DNA of 32,000 nt from Candidatus Saccharimonadota bacterium (GTDB taxonomy: Bacteria > Patescibacteriota > Gracilibacteria > Absconditabacterales > Absconditicoccaceae): NCBI GenBank assembly GCA_030429145.1, contig JAUIDC010000001.1, forward strand, positions 120,001 through 152,000, read 5' to 3'. The notes below the pieces were generated by a model. It made no database searches, was not told the DNA's origin, and saw only the letters and a program-made list of their open reading frames with translations. The first letter of the stretch is position 1. Each line of letters begins with the position of its first letter. Shown piece after piece: positions 1 to 28,799 of this stretch. Both the position numbers and the translations under genes were made by a program.

Positions 1-288
1 CATGTCAGGTCACGTAAATCCTGACAACAACACTAGTTTCCTAATCTTCACACCCTTTCTCTCCAATGCTTTCATGGCCACTACTGCTCCAAGCGAATGT
101 CACACAAGGATAGTATTTACATTGAATTTTGCATTGTCGACGATAAATGAGATTTGTTCTTCCACATTTGGTTCGTCAGGATTTGGTAGTGGTGGATTGA
201 GTACGATACCACCTTTCGCTTCAAGTTCCTTCTTGAGCCATGGAATAAAGTTTGCGTCCGGTCTTCACTCAAAACCGTGAAGTATCAT
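1..288 (-). CDS. alpha/beta serine hydrolase, YdeN/RBBP9-like (partial, continues past the window start)
   Basis: Table-25 translation from Met 286-288 gives MILHGFEGRPDANFIPWLKKELEAKGG...NTILVGHSLGAVVAMKALE. It has the HGxxG oxyanion motif and a GHSLG nucleophile elbow. Three in-frame UGAs lie at 265-267, 100-102 and 10-12. It is in frame with secA and no stop separates them. Confidence 0.6.
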
Positions 289-2619
289 ATAGTTAGGAGT
301 TTTTTCTTCGAGTTCAAGCATCTCATCACGCTTGGTGTAGATACGCTGTCTTTGTTTATTGATCACCGAATCGTAGTCGAAGAGATGTTTACGGATAGAA
401 AAGTTCCATCCCTCCATCTGTTTCTGCGCACGGATAATTGATGATGAAAACTGTTTCTGTGTCAGTTCAAGATTTTCCAATTCCTCTCTTGAAAGAAGCA
501 TACCTGCAACGGATTGGATTCTCTCACCTCCCATCTTACGCATGATCTCATCATCAAGCGCTACGTAGAAGACTGACATACCTGGATCTCCCTGACGTCA
601 TGCACGACCTCTGAGCTGATTGTCGATACGACGTGATTCGTGTTTTTCCGTACCGAGGATAAACAATCCGTAATGAAGATTTTTTGACACTAGCCCTTCC
701 GTATTTCCATCAGCAGCTTTCACGTGAATTTTTGCAAACCACTGTGTTGGGATTTTTTTCGCTTTATTAAATGAGATCTCTATGTGCTTACCTGCTACAT
801 TGAGGATTCCCTGCTCTGCCGTACGAATCTGCTCATCGCTGAGACCCCACGTCTGTTTCATCGCTTCGATGGTAAAATCGAACTCTCTTTCAGAAAAGAC
901 AGTTGCCTTTACGTCGTGCGGAGCGACCTTGCCAAATGTATTTCATTGTAGTGTTTGGTCTATCCATTTGATATAGTTTGTAGCAATTTTCTCATTGAGT
1001 CACTTCTCAAGCTTGATGTCGGTACCACGTCATGCCATATTGGTTGCAACGACTACAGAACCAGACTTTCCAGCATTTGAGACGATCTCAGCCTCTTTCT
1101 CATGAAACTTTGCATTGAGTACGTAGTGCTGTACTTGGATTTTACGTAGGATCTCCGATACGAGCTCCGAAGTATGGATGCTCGACGTACCAATAAGGAT
1201 AGGCACTCCTGCATCATGGTAGAACTTGATCGCGTCTACGACCGCCTTCCACTTTGCATTTTGATTGAAGTAGACCTTATCATGCCAGTCTGCACGGATG
1301 ATTGGTCTGTTCGTCGGGATACTCAACACCTCAAGATCATAGATCTTTTCAAACTCTTCACCTTCAGTCGTCGCAGTACCTGTCATACCTGCCAGCTTAT
1401 TATACTGCTTGAAAAAATTCTGGTAGGTGATCGTTGCGAGAGTTTGCGACTCGCGCTGGATGGTCACACCCTCTTTTGCTTCTATAGCCTGATGGAGCCC
1501 CTCAGAATAACGACGTCATGGCATCGTACGTCCTGTGTGTTCATCTACAATCAGGATCTCACCATCATGCACAATATAGTCCTTATTGTTATGATAACAC
1601 GCCTGTGCCTTCAACGCATTTTCTATATGATGAATCTCATCAAAACCAAAATCTTTATACAAATTTTCTACTCCAAGGGTCTTCTCCAATTTCTCGATAC
1701 CCTGCCCACTGAGGGTCACATTTTTATTCTTCTCATCGATATAGTAGTCGCCATCTTCTACCTGTTCATCCTCTTTCTTTAACACCTCGGCTAAGAAACC
1801 TTTTGGTGTTTTCTTTTTTTGCGAACATGGCGTCAGTGTACGAACGATCTTTGAGTAGTAGTCATACTTCTCTGTCGGATCAGCCGAAGGCTGCGAGATG
1901 ATCAATGGCGTTCTCGCCTCATCGATCAAAATAGAGTCGACTTCGTCGACGATAGCAAAATTGAGCGGACGCCGTGTCACATTACGCTCAGAAAGCGAGC
2001 GAGTCAAATTGTCACGGAGATAGTCAAATCCGAGCTCTGAGTTTTCTACATAGGTAATATCTTTAGCATACTCGTCACGGCGCCCTTGAATCGGCGTCCC
2101 CTTCACGACTGAACCAGAAGAAAGACCAAGCCACTCATACAGGTGCCCCATCCATTCGCTGTCACGAGACGCGAGATAGTCATTTACCGTTACCACATGT
2201 ACACCTTTTCATTCCAGTGCATTGAGATAGACGGGAAGTGTTGCCACGAGCGTCTTACCTTCACCTGTCTTCATCTCAGCAATTCTTCCGTTGTGCAGCA
2301 CGATACCACCAAGAAGTTGCACATCATATGGCACCATATCCCAGACCTGCTTCTGTCCTTTCACATCGTACTCATTGCCTTTCATCCTTTTACATGCCTG
2401 TTTCACCGTAGCAAACGCCTCTGGCAAGATATCATCGAGCGTCTCTCCCTTTTTTAGTCTCTGTTTAAACTCAGGCGTCTTCGCCTTTATCTGCTCATCA
2501 CTGAGAGCATCCCACTCCTTATCTATTTCATTAATCTTTTTTACTATCGGAGCAAGCTTATTGAGCTGACGTTGGTTGTAATCACCTGCAATAGCTCCTA
2601 ATATTTTATTGAATACCAT
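289..2619 (-). CDS. secA: preprotein translocase ATPase SecA, C-terminally truncated, with no stop codon of its own
   Basis: Track ORFs 2209..2619, 1516..2196, 1030..1467, 598..861 and 265..579 are all in one frame, joined by UGA. Motifs seen: [14 protein letters not shown] (Walker A), [56 protein letters not shown] and NQLRGRA-G-RQGDPG. The ORF ends around ...[14 protein letters not shown], then runs directly into the hydrolase. Confidence 0.9.
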
Positions 2620-2634
2620 AAATAATTGAAAATT

Positions 2635-2692
2635 TATAAAATTAAAAATTGCAAATCCATATTGTTACTTTATGAACCTTTAATTTTTAATG
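2635..2692. repeat. AT-rich intergenic module, copy 1 (left arm TATAAAATTAAAAAT 2635-2649; right arm TTATGAACCTTTAATTTTTAATG 2670-2692)
   Basis: Same two arms as copy 3. The reverse complement of the left arm (ATTTTTAATTTTATA) ends 15 nt upstream of the secA ATG. Confidence 0.6.
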
Positions 2693-2694
2693 TA

Positions 2695-3033
2695 TTAGAG
2701 AATATCATCCCAAGAGTACCTACGGGTTTTTTCTTTGTCAGGGGTATAATACGCGAGCGCTTGTTTATAAGAAAATGATAATGAAGTTTTTTGTGTTACT
2801 ACCGTAATAAGCCCTCCTAGCAACAATGCCTCTGCAAGCAGCAACAAGATAGCATCGATAAGATCAGACTGTTTCAACAGCCCAAATGTCTGCTCGGTTT
2901 TGCCGGTCACCGCCTGCTGGATACCTTCGATCTTGGCAGGCAACTGCTGTCCTATTTCCGACTGCGCAAAAACCACGCTCCCTGTCCCAAGAAGCATCGC
3001 CAAAAACATATATGCGAGCAGTTTACGTTTCAT
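2695..3033 (-). CDS. hypothetical small secreted/membrane protein (112 aa)
   Basis: Intact ORF ending in TAA. N-terminal signal peptide MKRKLLAYMFLAMLLGTGSVVFA/QSE and one further hydrophobic segment (ILLLLAEALLLGGLITVV). Confidence 0.55.
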   Translation of the reverse strand: MKRKLLAYMFLAMLLGTGSVVFAQSEIGQQLPAKIEGIQQAVTGKTEQTFGLLKQSDLIDAILLLLAEALLLGGLITVVTQKTSLSFSYKQALAYYTPDKEKTRRYSWDDIL

Positions 3034-3074
3034 GGTGCTACTATATATATGTCTTTTGAGAAATCAATGTAAGA

Positions 3075-3106
3075 AAAAACCGCCCTTCTGATACAAAGGC
3101 GGCTTC
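3075..3106 (-). terminator. rho-independent terminator after the 3124..3636 gene
   Basis: Minus-strand RNA GCCGCCUUUGUAUCAGAAGGGCGG forms a GC stem and is followed by UUUUUU. Confidence 0.65.
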
Positions 3107-3123
3107 CATAGATAATGCTTCTG

Positions 3124-3636
3124 TTAGCTCATAGCATGTTTGACATGTAGATTTTCAGGATATTCCTCATCGATATTGAAGACCTCCTGAACAAGGTACT
3201 CGTTGTTGGCACGATTGATGGTATGATACTTGATTGCCATTTTACCTGATAGTAACAATGACAATGCCTCACCTGCCTGCATATAGTCGATATAACTTTG
3301 AGGAAAATGAATAGTCACTATCCTTTCGTTATGTCGAATATCTAAGACAATAGCTTGTATCTCTGGTTGCCCCTCTGTTTCATACGAACGAATGAACGCA
3401 TTGAAGTTTCCATCTTGCTTCAATTTTGACGCTGTTTGTTGATCAAGCGCAATCACTAAAGTCGGCAGAGGTTTACCATTGAGTATGATCAATGCTTCAA
3501 CGATAGAGCATATGATGATAATAAACCATGCGATCAGTGTCTCCGGTATCTGCGTATAAGCAAATAGCATAATAAGTGGAATAATAACGATAGCCACTTT
3601 CTGTGCGAAAGGTCTTCCCTGTGAATGTTGTTTCAT
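3124..3636 (-). CDS. hypothetical membrane protein (170 aa, two N-terminal TM segments)
   Basis: Intact ORF with a TAA stop. Hydrophobic segments VAIVIIPLIMLFAY and LIAWFIIIICSIVEALIIL. No family recognised. Confidence 0.55.
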   Translation of the reverse strand: MKQHSQGRPFAQKVAIVIIPLIMLFAYTQIPETLIAWFIIIICSIVEALIILNGKPLPTLVIALDQQTASKLKQDGNFNAFIRSYETEGQPEIQAIVLDIRHNERIVTIHFPQSYIDYMQAGEALSLLLSGKMAIKYHTINRANNEYLVQEVFNIDEEYPENLHVKHAMS

Positions 3637-3722
3637 AATGGATTTGTTTTTTGTTAACCCACCAACAATACCTCTGGTTAACAGAAAGTCAACCCTTTTT
3701 GAAAGAAAGTAATCTACAAGTA

Positions 3723-6530
3723 CTATTCCTCTATTTTATCTGAGTCGTCTTGTTGCTCGAGGAGCATATTTTTTGATGCAAGCGTAGATTGTCGCTCTTT
3801 TAATACAGCGATGACGGCATCTTTTATCAGCTCTTCTTCTTTCCAAGAAAATCCACCAAAATGCTTCATACCCAGAAGCATATAATAAAAGTCATGCAAC
3901 ACGATACCTTCGAGGTTTTCAACAATATAGTCGATGATCGACTGGGTTGTATTCTCTGTTTGGTCATTTTCCGCAATCTGATCTTCGACTAGTCTCTGTA
4001 GTTTACCTCATGGCAAAGCATTAACCTGCACTCGCTCCTCCACGAGAGACCTGAAAAACTTTTCTTTTAGTTGTTCTGTCTTTTGAAAGACAGAGATAAA
4101 CTCCGCGAGCAGATCCGCTGGCACACGTGCTTCTACCCAGTCAGCAAGATACCTCATCCTCGAGATACCAACCAGATAGTTTCCTGGATACTGTCCCGCA
4201 TAATTTTCTCTATTGATCGCAAAGTGCTCAACCGTCCTATTTTCTTCCTGATACCTTTTTGCCTCCCCTGGCTCCATCTGTTGTGCAATATACAATGCGA
4301 GAAATGTATGAAGATATGTCTCGATATCCTGAAACTCATCATAGACCTTTTCTATCTTTTTTTTGGTCTTACCTTGCAAATAACGTTCTATGATACCCAT
4401 ATTACGCTGTACTCATTTCGATATATGAGACTTTATATACTCAAAGTAGTTTTTATCTATCTGTTTTTTTCTCACGGGAATATCAGCAGCCCTCCCTCCA
4501 TATTTTTTGTAAAGTTTGCTGAGCGCATCCAATGACAAGTAGTCTTGATGGGTAACCGTCTGAGGACTCATCAATCTCTGTCTAGCTCCAAATAATACAT
4601 TATACAAAATATTTTTTCTTACCTCATCCCAAAATTTTCTTCTCTGCGTAGGGGACGGGATCATTCCTTTTACTACGGTAAAATAACCATCGGCAAAAAG
4701 GACTCACTGGTTCAGCAGTGTTTTCATCTTCGCAGGTGAAATAGTCGAAAAAGCTAAGAGTGAACCATATTTTTTCTTATTCTTTTTAAACTGTTTTCCG
4801 TATACCTCTACCAATTTTTGCGTAGCTTGTGATATGATCTGTGGACGGACAGCCTCTTCGCTACTGACATCAAGATCTTTTCCCTGTATCACCTGCTCTT
4901 TTCTACGAGCAACAAAATTCGCTTTTCTTTCTTTTGGGCTCTCCTGCACATAACCATCTTTATTTTCATCCCGATCCTTTATGATAGCATCTTCACCATA
5001 ACCAAGTTTTTTCATTGCCATGATAGGATTTCTCAGCCTATCAGGACCTCTACGATCTCTTGTTACTTTGCCATGATGTTCTGTCATCAAGACATTTCCA
5101 GTACGTAGATTGACAATTTCTTTTTGCAAAAGTGCTGTCAGTCCTGCTCTGAGCAGCTCCCTGAGCCCAGCAATACGTTCCTGTGATACACCATAGCTCG
5201 GCCCAGCTTTTTCTACTCATGAAACAATCAGATCAATATGTTCTCGGTTGATACCATACTCCTCAAAGTCAAAAGACTCAACAGTGAGATTTTCACACAA
5301 CTCAAAAAAACCGAGAACGAACTCTTTCTTAGCTTCATTACGAAGTTCATGAAGCTCCTGACGAGAAAAGGCAAATACTTCCTGCATCTTATGTGGACTC
5401 ATATCATTGTAGCGCACTTGTGCCTTTTCTTGAGACTTTATCATCTCAGCATATTTATTAATGTCTTTTCCTCTTCTAATAATATCTACTATCACATTTC
5501 TATCTCACGGTAACATCTTCTCCCAATAGTCTTTGTACCATGACATATAAGGAAGATTTTTTATCTTTTCTTTGATATCTGACTGTTCATCCGGCAAAAG
5601 TGTATCAAAGATATCTCACTGATCGGGCATATATGATGTAATATGCACAGATATATCCCTATATCACATCTGTCACTTCAATGCAGCCTTATAGCATTTA
5701 CTTATCTTCTCATGAAATAACACCTCAGTAGGATCTATCTCTTTGATAGCTATGTCTTTCCTTCGTAGCCCATGATAGAGCATACTTATACTAAATGAAT
5801 CAAGAATCTCCTTCTCCTCCCGTACGACATCCTCTGGATTATCATCCTTATTTGCTTTCGATCCATATGTAAAGCACCTTTGATAGTAGTATATTTTTTC
5901 TGTTTTTTTCAACTTTTCAAATCTATAATAGATCTCTGGATTGGTAATATGACCTAACTTAAACAACCTATATATCTCAGAATACTCTCTATCTGTGAGT
6001 ACTCTCTTTGGGATAATTTTTTCGTATTGTTCTATCAAAGAAAGTATAGCAGTCTCATACATATCCTTCGCCTCATGGACCTTAACAGAAAAAGATGTGA
6101 AAATATCACTAGCAGTTGTTAGGGCTGTTGAAGAAGCCTTCTCTGTTAACTCTTGTTCATTGATCAGTTTTTGCTGTTGTGCTCAGCGAAGCTGTGCCAT
6201 ATGTTGAGGTATCTCTTCAATATGAGATATATGGTTATCATCTAATACTTTCGTCAACCTATCTTCATATCCTCCATTTGCAGACATACCCGCACGGTAG
6301 TCGAGCCCCGTATGCCCAACATCGTGCAAGTGTTGTGCTTTCTCCTCTCTTTCATGACGCTCTTCCATTTGTTTTTTCTCCATGGCAGCCACTCTTTCCA
6401 TTTCTTTATTATACTCCTCCTCCGTTACTTTATACCAACCTCAAAACGGTGTTTCGATGTAGAAATTTCCATCGTCCTCCGGCTTTTCATCATAAAATCA
6501 CTCAAGATGTGAGGGGGTATTATTTGACAT
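3723..6530 (-). CDS. large orphan protein, 935 aa, no recognisable domain, no signal peptide or TM segment
   Basis: Track ORFs 6183..6401, 5673..6062, 5217..5495, 4704..5129, 4413..4664 and 4008..4400 share one frame (end coordinate mod 3 = 2). I translated every gap by hand and found it open. The only interruptions are 11 TGA codons (6498, 6441, 6183, 5673, 5664, 5616, 5505, 5217, 4704, 4413, 4008). ATG at 6528-6530 follows an in-frame TAA; the stop is TAG at 3723-3725. Confidence 0.8.
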
Positions 6531-6557
6531 CTTCTCTTATAGATAAACAGAACATGT

Positions 6558-6585
6558 ATAATATCTTTTATACAAAAAGAGTCAA
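6558..6585 (-). promoter_or_regulatory. sigma70-like promoter for the 935-aa ORF
   Basis: On the minus strand: TTGACT, 16-nt spacer, TATTAT. It lies about 28 nt upstream of the ATG at 6530. Confidence 0.45.
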
Positions 6586-6610
6586 TAGAAGCTCTCTTTC
6601 TTAAAAGAAC

Positions 6611-6639
6611 TTGGATTTTTTGATTGCAAAAACTATATA
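6611..6639 (+). promoter_or_regulatory. possible promoter for ftsK
   Basis: TTGGAT, 17-nt spacer, TATATA(AT). Weaker match than the others listed. Confidence 0.3.
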
Positions 6640-6686
6640 ATATGACTATAGGTAGTACATGGGTTTTACCAACTAATAATTTTAAG

Positions 6687-8855
6687 GTGGCAAGAAGGAG
6701 AAAAAAAACAACGAGAAAAAGGAGTAGTTTTGTCCTAGATAGAAAAAGAGTTGGAATTATTATGATTATAGTTTGAGCACTCTATTTCTTTTCGGTATCA
6801 TTTGCCCAGGGCTCTCCGATACTCGGCTTATTCAATAGGATCGTAACGTTGATCGTCGGTGCGATCGGTATACATATTTTTTTCGGTCTGATGATCATTG
6901 CAGGTCTATTGACGGTGATGAAACAGGAACTCAGTAAAACTATTATGAGACAGTTTATTTTATTGAGTATGGTTATCTCCGCGATCTTGAATTTCCCTGT
7001 ACTGGAAGAACAAAGTATCGCCTATCAAGACTACGGCGGATATATCGGCTGGCCGATATTGTGGATACTCCAGCGTGTGTTTGGAGAAAATCCGTTCGCT
7101 ATTAAGGCTATCATTGTAGCATTAGCTTTAGGTATTATTGCTTGGGTTATTTGGGCGTTTAATATACCAGTAAGGCTTCCTTCTATGTCGCTGAAAAGCT
7201 CTGGCAAGAAAACAACAAAGAGAAGAGCAAAGAAAGCTGTCGAAGAAGATGAGGAAGAAGAGTACGAGTATGAGGAGGAATACGAAGAAGAGGAAGAAGA
7301 AGCTCCAGCACCGGTTGTGACCAAAAAAGGTTCAGCGATTACCGATGGGCTGAAGTCTATGCTCAAAGATAAGATCCACAATAAGATCAAAGAGAAAGAG
7401 GTGCAGAAAGTGATTAAGTTTCCGAAAGATAAGCCAACATTTGATATTACACTTCTCGAAGATGGTGGTTCAAATACATTTGATGTAGATCAGTCATATC
7501 TCGAACAGAAGGCACTGGCTATCAAGGCAAAACTAGAAGAGTTTGATATACCGATTGATATCAAAGGATTTAATATTGGTCCATCGGTCGTACAGATAAA
7601 GGTTGCTCCTCAGGAAGGTATTAGAGTATCGGCTATTGAGAGCTATCAGAAAGATATTGCGCTTGCGTTGAAAACGAAGTCGCTGAGAATACTTGCACCG
7701 ATCCCCGGAACTGATGTGGTTGGTATCGAGATACCAAATCCGAAGCCACAGATGATCAGAGTGAGACAGATTCTCGGTAGCCCTGGTTTTGCAGAGAGCA
7801 TGAACAAAAATCTGACCAACCTCGTTCTCGGTATAGGTATAGATGGAAAACCACACACAAAGGCACTTGAAGAGATGCCTCACCTCCTCGTTGCTGGTGC
7901 GACTGGTTCAGGTAAGTCAGTAGGTGTAAACACGTTCATCCTTTCACTTATCTATCAGAACAGCCCATCTGAGCTGAAATTTTTGATGGTCGATCCAAAG
8001 CAGGTAGAACTGGGAATGTACGACGGCCTTCCATATCTCCTCGCACCAGTCGAAACTTCACCCGATAAGGCATTGAAGATATTGAAATGGACGGTTGCGG
8101 AGATGGAAAGAAGATATGGTCTGCTGAAAGAGTTTAGAGTAAGAAAACTTGATGAGTACAATAAGAAAGCTTCTGGCGAGCCACTACCTCGTATCGTTGT
8201 CGTGATAGACGAGTTGGCTGACCTGATGATGAATAGGAATACAAAGAAAGATACAGAAGCATGTATCACAAGGATCGCTCAAAAAGCACGTGCAGTAGGT
8301 ATTCATTTGATCGTTGCGACACAGAGACCATCGGTAGATGTGGTGACGGGACTGATCAAAGCGAACATCCCAACACGTATCGCCTTCTCTGTCGTTTCAC
8401 AGGTTGATTCGAGAACTATTCTTGATACAAAGGGTGCCGAAGAGCTACTTGGAAGATGAGACATGCTCTTTATGAGTGTGGATAGTAACCTCCCAGTTCG
8501 TCTGCAAGGCCCATTTGTCGATACTCCAGAGATCGAAGATATTGTCGATGCAATCAAAGATAAATATATGAAGGGTATCTCTGAAGATGACGTCTACGAC
8601 CAAGAACTTATGAACATCCTCTCTGGTAAGAATGTCGGTGCATGATCGATGTGATTTGGCGATGCTGGTGATGATGAAGAGCTTGTCCAACAGGCTACTG
8701 AAGTTATCAGACAAACAAGAAAAGCATCTGCTACTCTCCTCCAGCGCAAGCTCGGTGTATGATTTGCGCGTGCAGCAAGGATCATGGATATCTTAGAAGA
8801 ACGCGGCGTTGTTGGCCCTCAAGAAGGGGCTAAGCCAAGAGATATTTATCTGTAA
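6687..8855 (+). CDS. ftsK: DNA translocase FtsK/SpoIIIE
   Basis: One frame from 6687 to TAA at 8853-8855 with 5 in-frame UGAs. Basic N-terminus (M)[13 protein letters not shown] followed by TM segments and an acidic linker. Motifs: [12 protein letters not shown] (Walker A), [10 protein letters not shown] (Walker B), LLGR-G-DMLF, and a gamma-domain winged helix [28 protein letters not shown]. The start is uncertain: GTG 6687 is preferred, with ATG 6642 and ATG 6762 as alternatives. Confidence 0.9.
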
Positions 8856-9030: not shown

Positions 9031-9067
9031 TTGCTTGCTAAAAACAAATATCAACTAAAAAATTCTT

Positions 9068-9598
9068 ATGGAAAACAAAAACTATATCTCGTTTGAGGAA
9101 TTTATTGCAAAGCTAAAAAGGCATAAAGCAAAAAAGTGGGTGGATCCTCTGAACAAGCTAAAAGATGAGGTTAAAATAAAAGACGAAAATATTAACCACT
9201 ATTTTACACCCCATAGTGAGACAAATCCAAACACATACTATACTCAGCGCCAAAGCTTGATAAAACAATATCTGCCCACAGTATTGCAAATTTTGGTTGC
9301 GTGTATAAAGAGACTATATGATCAATATGAACACGATCATGCGAGCATAAATACACATGCGAGTTCAACACAGGGAGATCCTACAATCAACTGTTTTGGA
9401 GTCCATTTATATGAGGGAAGATTCATACGTCTCGATTACATGAAGGAGACAACTGATTACTTCGGACATCCTAGAGAAGAGGTACATTTTATAGAGTTTC
9501 GTCTATACAACAATAAGAATAACGATGATCTTAATGTTTCTACTCGCATATACCTCTATATGCCAGAAGAGCATGCCCCTGAAATGATAGTTGTATAA
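9068..9598 (+). CDS. hypothetical protein (176 aa)
   Basis: Intact ATG-to-TAA ORF with no UGA. It is bracketed by its own promoter-like site and terminator. No family recognised. Confidence 0.55.
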   Translation: MENKNYISFEEFIAKLKRHKAKKWVDPLNKLKDEVKIKDENINHYFTPHSETNPNTYYTQRQSLIKQYLPTVLQILVACIKRLYDQYEHDHASINTHASSTQGDPTINCFGVHLYEGRFIRLDYMKETTDYFGHPREEVHFIEFRLYNNKNNDDLNVSTRIYLYMPEEHAPEMIVV

Positions 9599-10861: not shown

Positions 10862-12211
10862 ATGAGTCGTCTACAACGCACCCTCATCATATGACTAAAA
10901 ATTTTTCTGCTTGGATTGATCCTCCATTTTCTTGTCTATAATCTTGTAACATTTGTTATCGGGGCAACGGGCATAGTGATGGAGATTATACGGCTTTGGA
11001 AAGAGATATTTACCGTAGGGTTTTTTGGTATATTGATTTTTTATGTATTCAAATATAAAGAGTTAAAAATATTCAAACATGATAAAGCACTCCGACGGCT
11101 TCAGTGGATCTTTATCGCGCTACTTCTTATCACATTTATCTTCACCATAGCGAAAGGTCTAGGAGTAGATATGTTTGTAAAAGCATTCAAATATGATTTT
11201 ATTGGCTACTTTATTTTCTTTGTAAGCTATTATCTGTGGAGATATCTACCAGAAGGAACAACTGAGAAGTTGAGCAAGTGGTATATCTTGATCATCCAGT
11301 GGCTGTTGGTCTTCGCTCTCGTACGATGGTGTGCTATTTTGATCAAACCAGGAGTATTGAAAATATTTGGGTATACAACAACAACCATAGAAGGAAGAGT
11401 TGGTGAACAACCACCTGCCGTCTACTGGACTGGTGAACATCAAGGCTACCCAAGAAACCAGTTCCTCTTCGAGAGACCAATTAGCTGGTGATTTTTTCTC
11501 ATAGCATTCTTCCCGTTGTTCTATATTTCAGTACTCCAAAGAAAATCTCTTCGCAAAACTTGGTTCCGATGGGCTGTTTTCGCTCTCAATGTGATACTGA
11601 CATTTTCAAGAGCTGCATGGGGGGCATGGGTAGTCCAGCTGATCATCATGGGGATTGCAAGTTATAGAAAGAACATGAAAAAATATCTGGTGAAGGTGCT
11701 GATACCGCTCCTTATTGTGCTTGCAGCTATAGCATATTTCTGAAGAAATGAGATTATTCATAGAAGTTTTTCAAACACTGGACACCTTCAGCTATTCCTT
11801 CAATGATGGGAAATGTTTACGGAAAGCCCTCTCATAGGAAAATGAGCAGGCTACGTTGGTCCAGCTTCTCACTGGGATGGTGGCTTAGCATTCAACCCTG
11901 AAAATCAGTATCTACAAATCATGATAGAATTCGGACTTATTGGATTTGCTCTCTGGATGGCGATCTACGTCTTCCTGAACCGAGTCGGCATCCGCGACTA
12001 TCTCAAAGTCTGGAAATCGAAAGACAAACAGCTTCCGCTCCACTATCAGATGACTCTTGCTATGAGTGTTGGTATGATAGGTCTTTCTATCTCAGGGCTC
12101 GTATTACACAGCTTCACTGATAGAATGATCGTCTACCCGATGATGGCTCTTTTCGGGCTCATCCTTGCATATCATAATAGTAAACTAGGGAAAATAGAAA
12201 AGAAGTGATAA
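10862..12211 (+). CDS. O-antigen ligase-like / Wzy_C-domain polytopic membrane protein
   Basis: One frame with several in-frame UGAs and many TM segments. It contains TFSRAAWGAW and, after a loop, GKGAGYVGPASHWDGGLAFNPENQYLQIMIEFGLIGF, the pattern typical of Wzy_C (WaaL/PglL/PilO-type) proteins. It ends ...EKK-UGA-TAA. Confidence 0.7.
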
Positions 12212-15041: not shown

Positions 15042-15521
15042 TTATTGACAGTGTATCTCTTTCAATTTACATGTCGCCGTGGCTATCTGGTAGCATGCTT
15101 TCAAATTCACATTGTCCGCGGAGATCACAGAAAACTCTGGAGATGCATCAGCATCACACTTAATCTGATACGGCTCAAGAAGTAGTTTAAAACCACTTGT
15201 AAAGATATATCCTCACGAGACTCTCTTCTCCTTTTGTATTTCCGCTGACAACTCTGCTCCTGAGTAGCTCCATGCTATGATCTCTCACGACATAATGGAG
15301 AGTTCCAAGGCATCATATCTTTGTGTACCTGTCCCAACCGAAACACTACTTGTGGTAGCGACCTCTTGGATCACATTCGTTATCGTGCTTGTGAGTTCTT
15401 CTTTTGTATTTGAAAAACGCACTCTATCGGAAAATCATCTACCCATACCGGTTACCATGGATAATACAATACCAACCAGCGCAATGGTTATTACAATCTC
15501 AACTAAAGTGAAACTCTTCAT
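15042..15521 (-). CDS. type IV pilin / pseudopilin with a prepilin-type N-terminal helix
   Basis: Not in the ORF track, because it has 3 in-frame UGAs. The minus strand reads MKSFTLVEIVITIALVGIVLSMVTGMGR-G-FSD..., the class III signal and hydrophobic helix FTLVE. There are C-terminal Cys residues (CDAD...C...CKLKEIHC). Confidence 0.7.
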
Positions 15522-15528
15522 GCACTAT

Positions 15529-15560
15529 TATAAAATTAAAAGTTTATAAAGTTCATAAAA
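15529..15560. repeat. AT-rich intergenic module, copy 4 (TATAAAATTAAAAGT 15529-15543 followed by an inverted TTATGAAC-like arm)
   Basis: The reverse complement ACTTTTAATTTTATA ends 7 nt upstream of the pilin ATG. The adjacent TTATAAAGTTCATAAAA is the reverse complement of TTTTATGAACTTTATAA. Confidence 0.55.
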
Positions 15561-15599
15561 TCTAAACGTTTTTGATTTGATAATTTTAAGAATCTTTAA

Positions 15600-16694
15600 T
15601 TAATTGGCCTGCACTCCACCAAGAATTGTCGTAATAATACCAAATACTGAAAATGCTATCAGTACAACGATTGCACCGACAAAGACGATCAGAATTGGTT
15701 CGATAATCTTTGAAAGATTATTGAGCATATTATTTAAATCCTCCTCGTATATCTCTATGATGTTTCCTAGGGACTCTGGAAGGTTTGCTGTATCCTCACC
15801 CACTTTCACAAGGAGTGATGCATTAGTCGGTACGATATCTACATATTTTCTGAAGACTTCATGCATTGTCTCACCGCGTCTAAGCTGTGCTATCATCGCA
15901 TCTATCATCTCTTCATAGACACCTATACGAATAATATCTTTCAGTAAGAAAAAGGTCGTCATATAACTCATCCCTGCGTATTGCATGATTCTCATGTATC
16001 TGAAGAACTTTATCAGATAGTAGTACTTTGTCATTTTTCCTATGAGAGGCATCCTGAGAAGCTGAGCGAATCATCGTCTCTTCCCGGACTCCGTTGAAAA
16101 GATGATGGAAAGGGTGAAACAGACAACGCCTAACACAATAAGTATCATCGCTATATTAGCCTGCATAAACTGTGACATCTCGATCATGACACGTGTGACA
16201 AGAGGCATCTCGATACCAGGAAATTGCTCTGCGATAGAAAAGATCCCTGGAAGAATATTGATAAACAGCACAAATACAGCGATAATAGAAATGATCAAGA
16301 GCAAGATCGGATAGGTCAAAGCACTGATATATTTGCCCTGCAAGGTACGTAGAAAATAATATTCACGGGAAAGTGATGCGAGGACCTTTACAAGATTACC
16401 CGATGCCTCACCTGATTTTACGATGTTGACATCAGATGGATTGAAGTAGTCTGGAAGACGAGAAAGCGCATGAGAGAGCTGACGTCACTCTTTGAGCATC
16501 GCTGCTATTTGCTTTCCTACATACCTTTGTGAAGCATTGTCCCCTCTTTCTGCTATAGTATTTGCTGCTTCCAACAAAGAGACTCCACCTTGTAACAGGT
16601 AAGCGAGCTCTCTGAAAAGAAATATCTTATCTTTCGTCCCAAAACCAGCTTTTTCTCTGGCCTCTAAGTAGTGACGAATCGATTGTTCAAACAT
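15600..16694 (-). CDS. pilC: type IV pilus / type II secretion platform protein PilC (GspF family)
   Basis: Track ORFs 16485..16694, 16071..16343 and 15600..16052 lie in one frame, joined by 2 UGAs. It has two GspF-type repeats (LLQGGVSLLEA...; ...GETMHEVFRKY...VGEDTANLPESL) and three TM regions. Confidence 0.85.
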
Positions 16695-16718
16695 ACAGCA
16701 GTCGAGAATAATAAAGTA

Positions 16719-17423
16719 CTAGGGTTTCATCATGTAACCAATAAGTTCTATCGTCACGGTCTGACTTTGCTGATATTTCACAATATCGTAATTTATCGAA
16801 TGTATCTTATAGAGCATTGGATATCTTGGACTGATATTGTTTTCTACATTGTAAACAAAGTTGAGTAGACCGTTCTTGTCAGCAAAATCTATAGTCAACG
16901 TAATAGGCACCATGATCAAACTGTCGATCTCTTTCACATCAGCAATGTTCCCAAAAGTAATGCTAGTGACGACACCATTCGACTGGTTGGTCGTTCCTCT
17001 CAGGAGATACTCATTGATATTGGCAAGGATAGTCTTTTGATCAAAAGCCATCTTCTCAGCATCATTTTTCTGAAGTTGTAAGAACGCTCTTACATGCTCA
17101 AGCACAGGATTGAGCGACTCAGGAAGCGTTGAACAACCCCTCGTACTCAGACAGTCAACCACAGAAGTCTTCTGCGCATTGATCTCTTTCACGATGAGGA
17201 GATCTTTGACAGTCTGTTGATACTCGGCATCTTTGAGCATCTGCTGTTGTTCTAAGGTCTCAATACTGTCCTGCATAGCTCTATGCTTTGCTACAGCATC
17301 TTTCATATATCATTGCGTAATTACCATGATGACGATAAGTATCACGATATATATCTTATATTTCACCGTCAGCACCATCTTTGTACTGTGTAGATCATTT
17401 TGTGTCTCTCTGTTATCGGCCAT
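16719..17423 (-). CDS. single-pass membrane protein, possibly a PilO-like pilus assembly protein
   Basis: Extended to ATG 17421-17423 through one UGA. N-terminal TM segment (YKIYIVILIVIMVIT), a coiled-coil-like stretch, then a beta-rich C-terminus. Its position between the PilN-like gene and pilC supports the call. The assignment is weak. Confidence 0.4.
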
Positions 17424-17427
17424 AACA

Positions 17428-17976
17428 CTATTTGCTGCTTGTTCCATCGAGCGATATGTCAGCAGTTAAAGTAAATTCAAAACCATTGTCTTCTTTTTGA
17501 TAGTCTTTTATCGTCACGTTTGTGATAAACTCCAGTGATGTAAACTGGTCTATCACACCGTTATTCGCATAGATATATGAGAGATTTGGAACTGTCCCCT
17601 TGAGGCTTATCTCATCAAAATCTATCTTAAAGTCAGAAAATTGTACGTTCCCGCCCCCAAGATTTTGTAGCGTCGTGAAGATTTCGATAACACGAGTAAG
17701 GCGTTCAAGCCACCCGTTATCGGTATTGGTTTGTAGTAGTTTTTTTCCTGCAGCATACGTGACAAAGTCTTCAGACTCATAGGCCTTTGCTATCTCGGCA
17801 TCTTGCGTAGCTATTGCCTCTTGTAGGTCAGACTGCTGTGAGCGTTGCACTTGTGTCATTGCGAAAGCGAATCATCGATAACCAAGATACGCCAAGAAAA
17901 TGATCAACACGAAAATATAGGCTTTCCTCCATGGTGCACGCACTTTCTGCGCATCATCCATCACACTGTTTGTCAT
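17428..17976 (-). CDS. single-pass membrane protein, possibly PilN-like
   Basis: Extended to ATG 17974-17976 through one UGA. Short cytoplasmic N-terminus, TM segment AYIFVLIIFLAYLGY, and a C-terminal pattern ISLKGTVPNLSYI...FTSLEFITNVTI...FEFTLTADI resembling the PilN periplasmic domain. Confidence 0.4.
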
Positions 17977-18012
17977 ACAAATGACCAGCTAAGAACTAAA
18001 GGATATACGCTT

Positions 18013-18819: not shown

Positions 18820-18855
18820 ACTAATTTCTCTATATGATAAACTTGTTATTCGTAG

Positions 18856-19196
18856 TAAAGTCTCCGGTGTAAGCCCGATTCTGTTTTAGGTGATATTTAT
18901 CTTTGCTGGCCTATAGCCAACTTTGTGCACGACTCAACCGAAGCTGAGCACGCTTGCAGCGGATAGGGTTTACCACTCGACTGACGAACTGTCAGACTGA
19001 GAAGGAGTAGCGCAACAAAAGTTACGCATCTCCACGTTGCATCTTTCCTCGGCCAAAGACCGAGTAGTTTTCGTTTCTGTGGCACGATCCTTTGCCCCGT
19101 ATTCCGGGCGATCCAGCAGCTGTTAGCTGCTATCCGTTTTGTGCTGTCGAGACTTTCCTCCCTCGATAAATCGAGGGCATCACCACCGTAAGACTG
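18856..19196 (-). ncRNA. rnpB: RNase P RNA (bacterial type)
   Basis: The minus strand reads ...CCCUCGAUUUAUCGAGGG (P3 hairpin) then AGGAAAGUCUCGACAGCAC..., with CCACAGAAACGAAAA, GUGGUAAACCC, and near the 3' end ACAGAAUCGGGCUUACACCGGAGACU, which can pair with the 5' AGUCUUACGGUG (P1). The track ORF 18897..19217 is a shadow over this RNA. End coordinates are approximate (+/-5 nt). Confidence 0.8.
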
Positions 19197-19201
19197 GCTT
19201 G

Positions 19202-19230
19202 ATAATACAGATAACACGAATAATTTTCAA
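19202..19230 (-). promoter_or_regulatory. promoter for rnpB
   Basis: On the minus strand: TTGAAA, 17-nt spacer, TATTAT. The predicted start near 19195 coincides with the 5' strand of P1. Confidence 0.5.
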
Positions 19231-19231
19231 G

Positions 19232-19259
19232 TTGAAAGCAAAAGCGAAATCACTATAGT
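19232..19259 (+). promoter_or_regulatory. promoter for secG and the solute-binding protein gene
   Basis: TTGAAA, 16-nt spacer, TATAGT. Its -35 box is back to back with the rnpB -35 box (TTTCAAgTTGAAA palindrome). Confidence 0.5.
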
Positions 19260-19292
19260 AAAAGTCCGTTTTACTTATGATACGATTGCTTT

Positions 19293-27032: not shown

Positions 27033-27413
27033 TTATATCCTTACGGTCGTCCAACTTACTCTTCAGGCGTCTATGGCTCTTTTTATCATAGTTTCATTTC
27101 TATTTAACTGGCTTTTGCCAGTTTTTATTTCGATAAAAGCAACTTCACGAAGCGCTCATTCGCTCAAACCATCGAAAGCGATATAGTCGACTCACTTACC
27201 AAGGAAGACGAGATCTTTATAGTGATACGGAAAATCAGGGAGCAAAGGGGCTATTTTCTCACTCACGAAGCCCAATGTCGTAGCACGAGACTTTGCGACA
27301 GCATCTTTGCGCTCTCCCCTTCTCTGTTGCCGAAAGACAATTTTTGCTATCAGATATCCGATAATGACACCCACGATAACTCCAACAATAATATACCCTA
27401 TTCCGTTTGACAT
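27033..27413 (-). CDS. membrane-anchored endonuclease related to archaeal Holliday junction resolvase (COG4741 / Endonuc_Holl-like)
   Basis: N-terminal TM segment GYIIVGVIVGVIIGYLIA, then RKDAVAKSRATTLGFVSEKIAPLLPDFPYHYKDLVFLGK-G-VDYIAFDGLSE-G-ALREVAFIEIKTGKSQLNRNETMIKRAIDA-G-RVSW. Three in-frame UGAs. Confidence 0.6.
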
Positions 27414-27527
27414 ACTGCTTGAAATAAGTGATTAAATGGATACAAACTCATAGTAGTTATTTCGGCAGGCGACACAATACATTTGCCATGTGCTCATCAT
27501 TTTATAGCATATTATTGATCAACATCT

Positions 27528-28799
27528 ATGTTAGACCCGAGGTATGTCAGAGAGAATCTCGACCATATACAGCAAATCATTAAAGATAAGAATAGTAAAG
27601 TGAATATCGATACTTTTGCTTCGCTCTACGATGAGGTAAAAGAGCTTCAGCAGCAAGAACAAGATTTGAACACACAGAAAAATCAAGCTGCAAAAGAACA
27701 GAATGCTGAAGCTGGTAAAAAAATTAAAGAACAGCTACAAGCCCTCAGCGAGAAACTGTCAGACAAGCAAAAAGAGCTCAATGAGCTACTTTGGGCTATT
27801 CCAAATGCCTATTCGGACGACACTCCTGTGGGGAAAGATGAAGAAGAAAACAAGCTGCTTCGCACCTGGGGAGAGCCAAAGGCTTTCACATTTGATGTAA
27901 AAGACCACGTAGACCTTGGGACAGCGCTCGATATATTGGATTTTGAAAGTGCATGAAAGATTTCATGAAGTAGATTTGTCTATTTGAAAAATGGACTGGT
28001 AAGATTGCAGTTCGCGTTGATTCAGTGGGTTATGGAGACATTGACCAATCAGGAGATCATAGATGAGATTATCAAGAAGAATAATTTGAAGGTGAAAAAT
28101 ACGCCGTTTACGCTGATGCTTCCTCCGTTTTTCATGAAGATGGATGTAATGGATAAGATGGGTAGGTTGCAGCCGACAGATGAAAGATACTGCTATGAAC
28201 AGGACAACTTAGTGTTGAACGGCTCGGCTGAACATGTGCTTGGGCCATTACATATGGATCAACAGTTGACTGAAGATCAGCTTCCTATTAGATATCTTGG
28301 CTATGCAACATCATTTAGAAGAGAGGCTGGAAGTTATGGTAAAGACACTAAAGGTATGATCAGAATGCATCAGTTCGATAAGCTAGAAATGGAGTCATTT
28401 TGTCTGCCAGAAGATGGTCAGGAAGAGCAGGATTTCATGATTGCTATCCAAGAGCATATGTTACAACAGCTAGAAATCCCTTATGAGGTATTGATCTGCT
28501 GTACAGGAGATATGGGAGACGTTGATTATCGCCATATAGATATCAACGCATGGATTCCAAGCCAGGACAAGTATCGTGAGACCCACAGTGGAGACTATAT
28601 GACAGATTATCAGGCAAGAAGACTCAATATCAGATATAAAAAGGCTGACGGCGAAAAAGGCTTCGTGCACATGAATGACGCAACTGCTTTCGCATTGAGT
28701 AGAACGCTCGTAGCCATCATCGAGAACAATCAACAAGAAGATGGATCGATTAAAGTTCCAAAAGTGTTGCAGAAGTGGATGGGGAAAGAGGTTATTTAA
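27528..28799 (+). CDS. serS: seryl-tRNA synthetase
   Basis: N-terminal coiled-coil arm; LDFESA-G-KIS-G-SRFVYLKNGLVRLQFAL; class II motifs FRREAGSYGKDTKGMIRMHQFDKLE and TAFALSRTLVAIIENNQ. Confidence 0.95.

Follow-up and report, generated by a model that had tools for sequence, protein, structure and literature searches.

We analysed a 32,000-nt stretch of DNA from a Candidatus Saccharimonadota bacterium placed by GTDB in the Absconditicoccaceae of the Gracilibacteria (assembly GCA_030429145.1, contig JAUIDC010000001.1, positions 120,001 to 152,000; the whole stretch is called the window below), and in it one open reading frame (ORF) on the minus strand at 3723-6530, divergent from ftsK, which codes for a protein of 935 aa when UGA is read as Gly (translation table 25). 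This ORF had been singled out in an earlier note made from the letters of the window alone. The gene and its signals are the following:

3723-6530, minus strand: coding sequence of the 935-aa protein (table 25; 109 kDa, pI 6.2)
6498-6500, 6441-6443, 6183-6185, 5673-5675, 5664-5666, and 5616-5618, minus strand: first six sense TGA codons
5505-5507, 5217-5219, 4704-4706, 4413-4415, and 4008-4010, minus strand: last five sense TGA codons
3723-3725, minus strand: TAG stop codon
6558-6585, minus strand: candidate promoter of the sigma-70 type (TTGACT-16-TATTAT), located 27 nt upstream of the ATG within the 111-bp spacer that separates the gene from the divergent ftsK

The frame comprises 936 codons from ATG to TAG, has no internal TAA or TAG, and carries 11 in-frame TGAs, at codons 11, 30, 116, 286, 289, 305, 342, 438, 609, 706, and 841. 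With a TAA or TAG two codons 5' of it, the ATG at 6528-6530 is the earliest start possible, and the start is thus unambiguous. The chance that 935 codons would be free of TAA and TAG was ~4e-23, calculated as (1-p_stop)^935 from the local base composition, and the longest such frame found in 50 shuffles of the whole window had 304 codons. Codon usage was correlated with that of the other window genes with an r of 0.77 in frame 0 and of 0.11-0.50 in the five other frames. Under table 11 the frame was split into at least eight pieces, the edges of which coincided exactly with the TGAs. The earlier note had described one uninterrupted gene under UGA = Gly that appears as eight or more pieces, and both statements were confirmed by these figures: 3723-6530 on the minus strand is one real protein-coding gene of a genome of the UGA = Gly (table 25) Gracilibacteria/Absconditabacterales lineage.

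Two further statements about the gene had to be amended. It does not exist only under UGA = Gly, since any code in which UGA is a sense codon leaves the frame uninterrupted, for instance UGA = Trp, as in the public record. No other complete gene in the window is as large, but secA, which is cut by the window edge, is longer (~1230 aa in relatives). The promoter-like site is indeed present at 6585-6558 (minus strand), with 10 of 12 matches, and is joint best within 2400-7000, but sites of this quality were not enriched relative to shuffles (18 found versus 14.4 +/- 3.3), and the candidate is therefore weak evidence.

An exhaustive single-sequence phmmer search of 1.84 billion cluster representatives returned 27 relatives, seven of them full length or nearly so (607-972 aa, 23-28% identity) and the rest fragments. 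Nine distinct full-length members were read as DNA and retranslated with table 25, namely that of the window, L001-L006, L007 (from the GTDB genome JAGOPC01), and L052, and each contains 9-25 in-frame TGAs. To these come a further full-length copy, L055, with 927 codons and 11 TGAs, and a partial one, L054, which is a C-terminal piece. The members of a pair are 23-35% identical, except for L055 and L001, at 55%. The designation of the ORF as an orphan was thus not sustained.

The census of the family corresponds to the reach of that one phmmer run from one sequence. A metagenome scan with the pattern GGKLQRx[VIS][EQ][EDN] contributed L051/L052 as its sole new member, besides an L006 duplicate; the back-translated pattern cannot match a TGA-encoded Gly and is blind to many members. 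A word-indexed homology search returned the query only, whether started from the single sequence or from a profile of 28 sequences, the search having probably been swamped by Lys- and Glu-rich words. Scanning GTDB genomes with the family alignment yielded no member, and the source genome is accordingly not among the GTDB species representatives. Public entries of the family are either UGA = Trp translations (W-rich, full-length entries, for example P0001, P0002, P0007, and P0010) or table-11 fragments, among them P0006 and P0014, which are two pieces of one ORF on L054 (L054 229-762 and 970-1236). In these two forms the family is hidden from routine annotation. It is a small, uncharacterised family, rare even in very large collections and so far seen only in UGA-recoded genomes, from which every full-length member read as DNA comes.

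For the 935-aa gene, UGA = Gly is the correct reading, and not Trp or termination. TGA (written # here) stands at invariant glycines of SecA (TNMA#RGTDI and RGRA#RQGDPG), of the signature region of the ATP-binding cassette (ABC) exporter (GEG#LKLSGGQRQR), of MraY (MGDS#ALALGG), of FtsK (LLGR#DML), and also of seryl-tRNA synthetase (SerRS). In the family alignment, the columns with TGA were 5.2-fold enriched for GGN-encoded Gly, while Trp occurred once in 594 cells. For the first Gly of the motif GGKLQR, the window, L004, and L005 use TGA, whereas the remaining members have GGN. P0001, the public copy of the 935-aa protein, was translated with UGA = Trp and is consequently wrong at 11 positions. 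TGA accounted for 20-25% of the Gly codons in family members versus 9-19% in neighbouring genes, and this high share points to a long residence in recoded genomes and not to a recent import. The SerRS ORF at 27108-28799 (plus strand; 564 codons open in a stop-to-stop frame) has ~140 extra N-terminal codons with several TGAs before the canonical start region, a candidate extension or read-through.

The conserved parts of the protein, which are distributed over its whole length, include the following:

6411-6494, minus strand: N-terminal conserved beta-hairpin and start of a long helix, residues ~13-40, YDEKPEDDGNFYIETPFGGWYKVTEEEY; strands at 23-26 and 32-35 in the AlphaFold2 (AF2) model
5907-5924, minus strand: invariant motif RFExLK (R203, F204, E205, and K208), core of the most conserved N-terminal block, residues 151-275
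3726-4730, minus strand: C-terminal conserved all-alpha domain, residues ~601-935
3993-4010, minus strand: invariant motif GGKLQR, residues 841-846, situated in a loop where a helix begins

Glu, Lys, and Leu are abundant in the 935-aa protein. There is no transmembrane (TM) segment, the highest 19-residue Kyte-Doolittle mean being 0.89, no signal peptide by hydropathy, and no internal repeat or duplication. AF2 modelling of the whole chain from a 28-sequence alignment gave a mean predicted local distance difference test score (pLDDT) of 84.2 and a predicted template modelling score (pTM) of 0.72. The model consists of ~44 helices of up to 40 residues, packed in bundles and not forming a long coiled coil, and of two small beta-hairpins, at residues 23-35 and 482-491. 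P0004, a 318-aa fragment corresponding to residues 623-926 of the window protein, gave a C-terminal model with a pLDDT of 90 and a pTM of 0.83. Models were built from the UGA = Trp versions held in databases, which are wrong at 11 of the 935 query positions, with an expectedly minor effect. The product is thus predicted to be soluble and almost entirely alpha-helical, in agreement with the earlier description of a charged, helix-rich protein devoid of signal peptide and TM segment.

Across the nine members 21 residues were invariant: D156, Y158, E170, F190, R203, F204, E205, K208, G223, K275, K470, G615, L653, Y677, Y781, N837, G842, K843, L844, R846, and D880. The two main conserved blocks are residues 151-275, with RFExLK, and 826-850, with GGKLQR; the N-terminal hairpin is kept in most members as xLPFG..EV(S/T)xEEY. 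None of the motifs Walker A, HEPN, Fic, DDxxD, HExxH, and CxxC was conserved across the nine members, nor was any His, Cys, or Ser invariant among them. The string HLHDVGHTG, considered as a metal or catalytic motif, was rejected, as it is not conserved in the family alignment; it had already been distrusted in the earlier note.

No Pfam, NCBIfam, PHROG, or PADLOC family was matched by the 935-aa protein, and in a Pfam scan of seven members no family was matched by more than one of them (best E value, 0.015). A match here meant a score that reached the model's curated threshold, or a weaker one recurring consistently among the members. Among PDB sequences neither the query nor a seven-member profile found a match (best E values, 1.6-2.2). 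Foldseek searches of the PDB and BFVD libraries, for which an E value below 1e-3 together with a template modelling (TM) score of at least 0.5 was taken as a fold match, gave no significant result with the whole chain (PDB, best E value 0.02 and TM scores of at most 0.13; BFVD, 0.025 and at most 0.12) or with the C-terminal domain (PDB, 0.37 and at most 0.28). The top-ranked matches were rod-like helical bundles, such as the CATCHR/MUN proteins Munc13-1 MUN, Exo70, and Sec10, the M region of alpha-catenin, and spectrin, which share with the 935-aa protein an all-alpha build of many 25- to 40-residue helices packed in bundles. These matches were at noise level (E values, 0.02-3.5; TM scores, 0.08-0.28; root mean square deviation, 15-28 A), and the proteins are eukaryotic, of unrelated biology, and without sequence similarity, so that the likeness is one of secondary-structure class only. 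A helical ATPase of the SMC or other P-loop type was also rejected, since Walker A (GxxxxGK[ST]) was present in none of the nine members and the model contains no long antiparallel coiled coils. The HMMER searches of Pfam and PDB and the AlphaFold-Foldseek comparison that the earlier note had proposed thus yielded no confident profile or structure match, and its failure to recognise a catalytic or binding domain was borne out in all of these libraries. The predicted model is all-alpha, confident, and without a match to a known family or fold in the libraries searched. The novelty, at the level of the protein family, consists in the absence of any match; no new mechanism is demonstrated.

The family ORF showed the highest protein divergence in its neighbourhood. 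Between L055 and L001, FtsK was 92% identical, the ABC exporter 90%, MraY 89%, and SecA 87%, versus 55% for the family ORF. Between the window and L001, L007, or L055, the identity was 84-87% for FtsK, 81-85% for SecA, 84-86% for MraY, 53-56% for a small protein with a signal peptide and a TM segment (the small SP/TM protein), 47% for a pilin-like protein, and 29-30% for the 935-aa ORF. In a second syntenic pair, L002 and L006, the neighbour of the resistance-nodulation-division (RND) type was 60% identical and the family ORF 28%. The pilin-like protein (44-47% identity) was the next-fastest evolving after the small secreted proteins.

Nonsynonymous divergence (dN), determined according to Nei-Gojobori, told the same. 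Between L055 and L001 it was 0.349 for the ORF versus 0.053 for FtsK, 0.082 for MraY, and 0.080 for the ABC exporter, with 0.135 as the upper bound across the housekeeping neighbours; between the window and L001 it was 0.756 versus 0.093-0.158 for the neighbours. The dN of the ORF was thus 4-8 times that of its neighbours. Synonymous divergence (dS) was saturated (>=1.8) in all genes and pairs, so that relative dN alone is informative and dN/dS is no test of selection. The dN of the ORF was far below this saturated dS, from which it follows that the protein is maintained under weak purifying selection, and the comparison gave no sign of gene-wide positive selection.

The gene lies between two conserved flanks, together with a variable companion:

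1-2619, minus strand: secA (3' part cut by the window edge), a conserved flank of the island
2695-3033, minus strand: the small SP/TM protein (112 aa), just upstream of secA and marking the secA-side edge of the island
3124-3636, minus strand: 170-aa protein with two TM helices and no TGA, downstream of the 935-aa gene, a variable island companion
6642-8855, plus strand: ftsK, divergent from the 935-aa gene, the other conserved flank

Syntenic relatives were obtained by a GTDB genome search with the FtsK of the window; they are labelled Patescibacteria group, 'Candidatus Peribacteria', or Absconditabacterales, and TGA is a sense codon in all of them. The order secA, small SP/TM protein, variable segment, ftsK, second variable segment, mraY, wzy-like gene, and ABC exporter was shared by the window, L001, L007, L011, and L055, and was followed, where the contigs reach, by truB, a pilin-like gene, and pilC. 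The L054 contig, of 5 kb, covers only the secA side. The housekeeping proteins of this region are 74-92% identical among the relatives, and all related genomes have the small SP/TM protein, which is 47-56% identical to that of the window.

In five of six closely related genomes the segment from the small SP/TM gene to ftsK was occupied, each time with different content. It holds the 935-aa ORF and the 170-aa protein in the window, the family ORF alone in L001, the family ORF with a 542-aa lipoprotein-like protein and an 804-aa polytopic membrane protein in L007, the family ORF with a 127-aa protein and an 809-aa membrane protein in L054, and the family ORF flanked by two proteins with two TM helices (2-TM proteins) plus a 780-aa membrane protein in L055. 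In L011 the island is empty and the small SP/TM gene adjoins ftsK, an absence established for the secA-ftsK site. The more distant L008-L010 and L012 had no family member within 10 kb of ftsK. A companion gene common to all islands was looked for and rejected, as the companions differ from island to island. No tRNA was found in the window, no integrase-type Pfam match among the neighbouring ORFs scanned, and no flanking repeats marking mobile-element boundaries around the island.

The conservation of synteny beside ftsK, which the earlier note had proposed to check, therefore holds for five related genomes and is limited to one genus-level group; members outside this group lie elsewhere. Those in lower-GC genomes have unrelated contexts of a housekeeping type, next to an RND-type transporter with queA or an aminoacyl-tRNA synthetase gene, or next to mutL; a partial gene near one of them we take, from our own reading of its sequence, to be the phenylalanyl-tRNA synthetase beta subunit. 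The flank of L054 is closest to that of L007 (their small SP/TM proteins are 92% identical), while its family copy is 39% identical to that of the window versus 27% to that of L007, which hints at allele exchange of the family gene at the island, though the L054 flank is short. The 935-aa gene belongs to the flexible genome and resides in a variable secA-ftsK island.

Several observations were made on the neighbouring genes. The 2-TM proteins, with a soluble tail of ~110 aa, were found at 3124-3636 (minus strand) of the window and at 7308-7871 and 10980-11633 (both plus strand) of L055, where they flank the large ORF, and in no other fetched locus; L001, L007, and L011 have no copy. The polytopic proteins of ~800 aa (L007 2761-5175, plus strand; L054 2044-4473, minus strand; L055 11650-13992, minus strand) have no Pfam match and are 42-49% identical to each other. 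No TGA occurs among their 32-40 Gly codons (P of ~0.002-0.006 for each, given 15% TGA elsewhere), and these codons are unusually rich in GGC, which suggests that the proteins may have been acquired from a donor with the standard code, or that selection may act against UGA in them. A TGA-free 176-aa ORF at 9059-9598 (plus strand), between ftsK and mraY, has no Pfam match and no counterpart in L001, L007, or L011, and indicates a second, small site of variable insertion within this conserved string of genes. SecA carries in its wing/scaffold domain an inserted Ser_hydrolase domain (PF06821, a YdeN/RBBP9-like alpha/beta hydrolase), which brings it to ~1230 aa; the insert, at about 1-306 of the window, has a GHSLG catalytic-type motif and is conserved in the window, L011, and L055, and secA is full length in L011 (5693-9382, minus strand) and L055 (14556-18266, plus strand). 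Farther away, a type IV pilus-like cluster at 15042-17988 (minus strand) codes for a pilin-like protein, PilC, and two small proteins, each with a TM segment at the N-terminus; its synteny is shared by L007, L011, L008, and L010. An RNase P RNA of class A (Rfam RF00010; 111 bits; E value, 1.6e-33) lies at 18854-19196 (minus strand), and a 126-codon ORF at 18897-19274 (minus strand) is spurious because it overlaps this RNA.

As to the function of the 935-aa protein, we favour, at about even odds, a non-catalytic cytoplasmic helical scaffold or adaptor whose invariant patches contact one or more partners. It would be an accessory protein, the partners being bound through the N-terminal hairpin, RFExLK at 203-208, GGKLQR at 841-846, and the scattered invariant Asp, Glu, Lys, Arg, and Tyr residues, while the remaining helical framework would be free to drift. 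The protein is read as non-catalytic because no catalytic motif is conserved and no His, Cys, or Ser is invariant. A number of points weigh against this reading. A scaffold or adaptor function is here deduced from the absence of other features. Acidic, basic, and Tyr residues (D156, E170, E205, D880, K208, K275, K470, K843, R203, R846, Y158, Y677, and Y781) are among the 21 invariant ones and could form an unrecognised active site of a new all-alpha enzyme fold, and Foldseek, used here with PDB and BFVD, is weak on all-helical folds. The absence from L011 applies to the secA-ftsK site and not to the genome as a whole, and a profile search could extend the family, taken here from single-sequence phmmer, beyond the code-25 lineages.

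A conflict or host-interaction factor, serving an episymbiotic or predatory bacterium from the CPR (candidate phyla radiation) as effector, toxin-like protein, or part of its defence, appears to us distinctly less likely, with perhaps one chance in four; a host-interaction role, put forward as speculation in the earlier note, is still speculative. Its target in a host, prey, or phage would keep changing, and the variable small membrane proteins would serve as partner, anchor, or immunity. The hypervariable island, in which the gene comes and goes, speaks for it, as do the rate of the ORF, the fastest-evolving gene of the neighbourhood ahead even of the pilin-like protein, the variable companions (the 2-TM proteins of the window and L055; in L007, L054, and L055, polytopic and lipoprotein-like proteins of ~800 aa), and the L054 copy, nearer to that of the window despite an L007-like flank. 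Yet the protein lacks a signal peptide, a TM segment, and any domain recognisable as serving secretion or translocation, it contains neither a toxin nor an adhesin nor a nuclease domain, and PADLOC gave no match; no companion is common to the islands, and dN far below saturated dS gives no gene-wide sign of positive selection. Unlike polymorphic toxins, which have a conserved N-terminus and a variable C-terminal toxin, it has conserved parts spread from end to end.

Two groups of known systems were compared with the family in this respect. The succession, in the window, of a fast-evolving helix-rich protein and a small variable 2-TM protein resembles that of a polymorphic toxin or pore-forming bacteriocin and its immunity gene. 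The 935-aa protein differs from such toxins in having no hydrophobic helical hairpin, no conserved-N/variable-C layout, and no toxin domain, and the 2-TM companion occurs in only two of the five occupied islands; a toxin-immunity or bacteriocin-immunity pair was rejected on these grounds and for want of a secretion signal. Large proteins have been proposed as host-interaction factors in the same broad code-25 lineage, the giant proteins of Vampirococcus lugosii (as host-attachment factors, PMC8080830) and the large extracellular proteins of a BD1-5 gracilibacterium (PMC6851277). These resemble the 935-aa protein in being large, unannotated, and rapidly varying, and they lend the conflict reading some support. 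They are, however, predicted to be membrane or extracellular proteins with recognisable interaction or toxin domains or hypervariable repeats (PMC8080830, PMC6851277), whereas the 935-aa protein is predicted to be cytoplasmic and has neither repeats nor a known domain; the giant Vampirococcus proteins, being membrane proteins, differ from it in particular.

Less probable again, in our estimate, is that the family represents a new fold class of effectors or adaptors that diversify fast and are peculiar to those episymbiotic or predatory Patescibacteria in which UGA = Gly. Such a protein would leave the cell by a route that needs no classical signal, or would work where two cells are in contact; it would evolve in an arms race against the host bacterium or against phages, and the island would be the locus at which its versions are swapped.

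We are similarly sceptical of a lineage-specific housekeeping structural protein under weak sequence constraint, for example a helper of division, chromosome segregation, or envelope biogenesis working with FtsK or SecA, in which conservation would be limited to the fold and a small number of contact positions. In the five related genomes that carry it, the gene is always placed upstream of secA and divergent from ftsK, its codon usage is native and its TGA share high, dN far below dS shows that it is maintained, and other members lie amid genes for aminoacyl-tRNA synthetases, MutL, QueA, and RND-type transporters. On the other hand, the site lacks a copy in L011 (FtsK 81-83% and SecA 82% identical), no member lies within 10 kb of ftsK in L008-L010 or L012, and members outside the genus are near neither ftsK nor secA. 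Nor would a housekeeping protein be expected to have only 27 matches in a library of 1.84 billion proteins, though many code-25 metagenome-assembled genomes are public.

A remnant or cargo of a phage or mobile element between secA and ftsK is very improbable. It would fit the variability of the island, and the weak Foldseek matches in BFVD were to helical proteins of the tape-measure, internal-virion, and tegument types, but those matches had E values of at least 0.025 and TM scores of at most 0.12. There was no PHROG match below an E value of 0.1, tblastn found nothing in 50,697 GenBank phage records, and no relatives lay on IMG/VR contigs; the lack of a tRNA in the window, of an integrase-type match in the neighbouring ORFs scanned, and of flanking repeats points the same way, and TGA usage is typical of the host genome. 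We regard a phage or mobile origin as essentially excluded. The same is true, with next to no probability left to it, of a pseudogene or of several short genes as in the table-11 track: table-11 gene callers do split the 935-codon frame and some database relatives are known as fragments only, but the fragments end exactly at TGAs and on L054 share one frame, frames of 840-972 codons are open except for TGA in nine divergent genomes, TGA aligns with Gly in the family, and AF2 confidence is high along the whole chain.

Large unannotated proteins are common in CPR genomes, and the code-25 Patescibacteria (Gracilibacteria and Absconditabacteria) are uncultured or barely cultured episymbionts, the proteome of which is largely unannotated. 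The ~100-kDa family described here offers a handle on this dark matter, and three of its features are above the ordinary: a confidently predicted fold without a match, a restriction, so far, to recoded lineages, and a sharply bounded hypervariable island. As the island lies between the universal genes secA and ftsK, it lends itself to amplification, to comparison between populations, and to tracking. Should the fast divergence stem from conflict with hosts or phages, a new class of interaction factor would be represented by the family; otherwise it would be a clean case of the drift of a helical scaffold, with 29% identity versus 85% for its neighbours.

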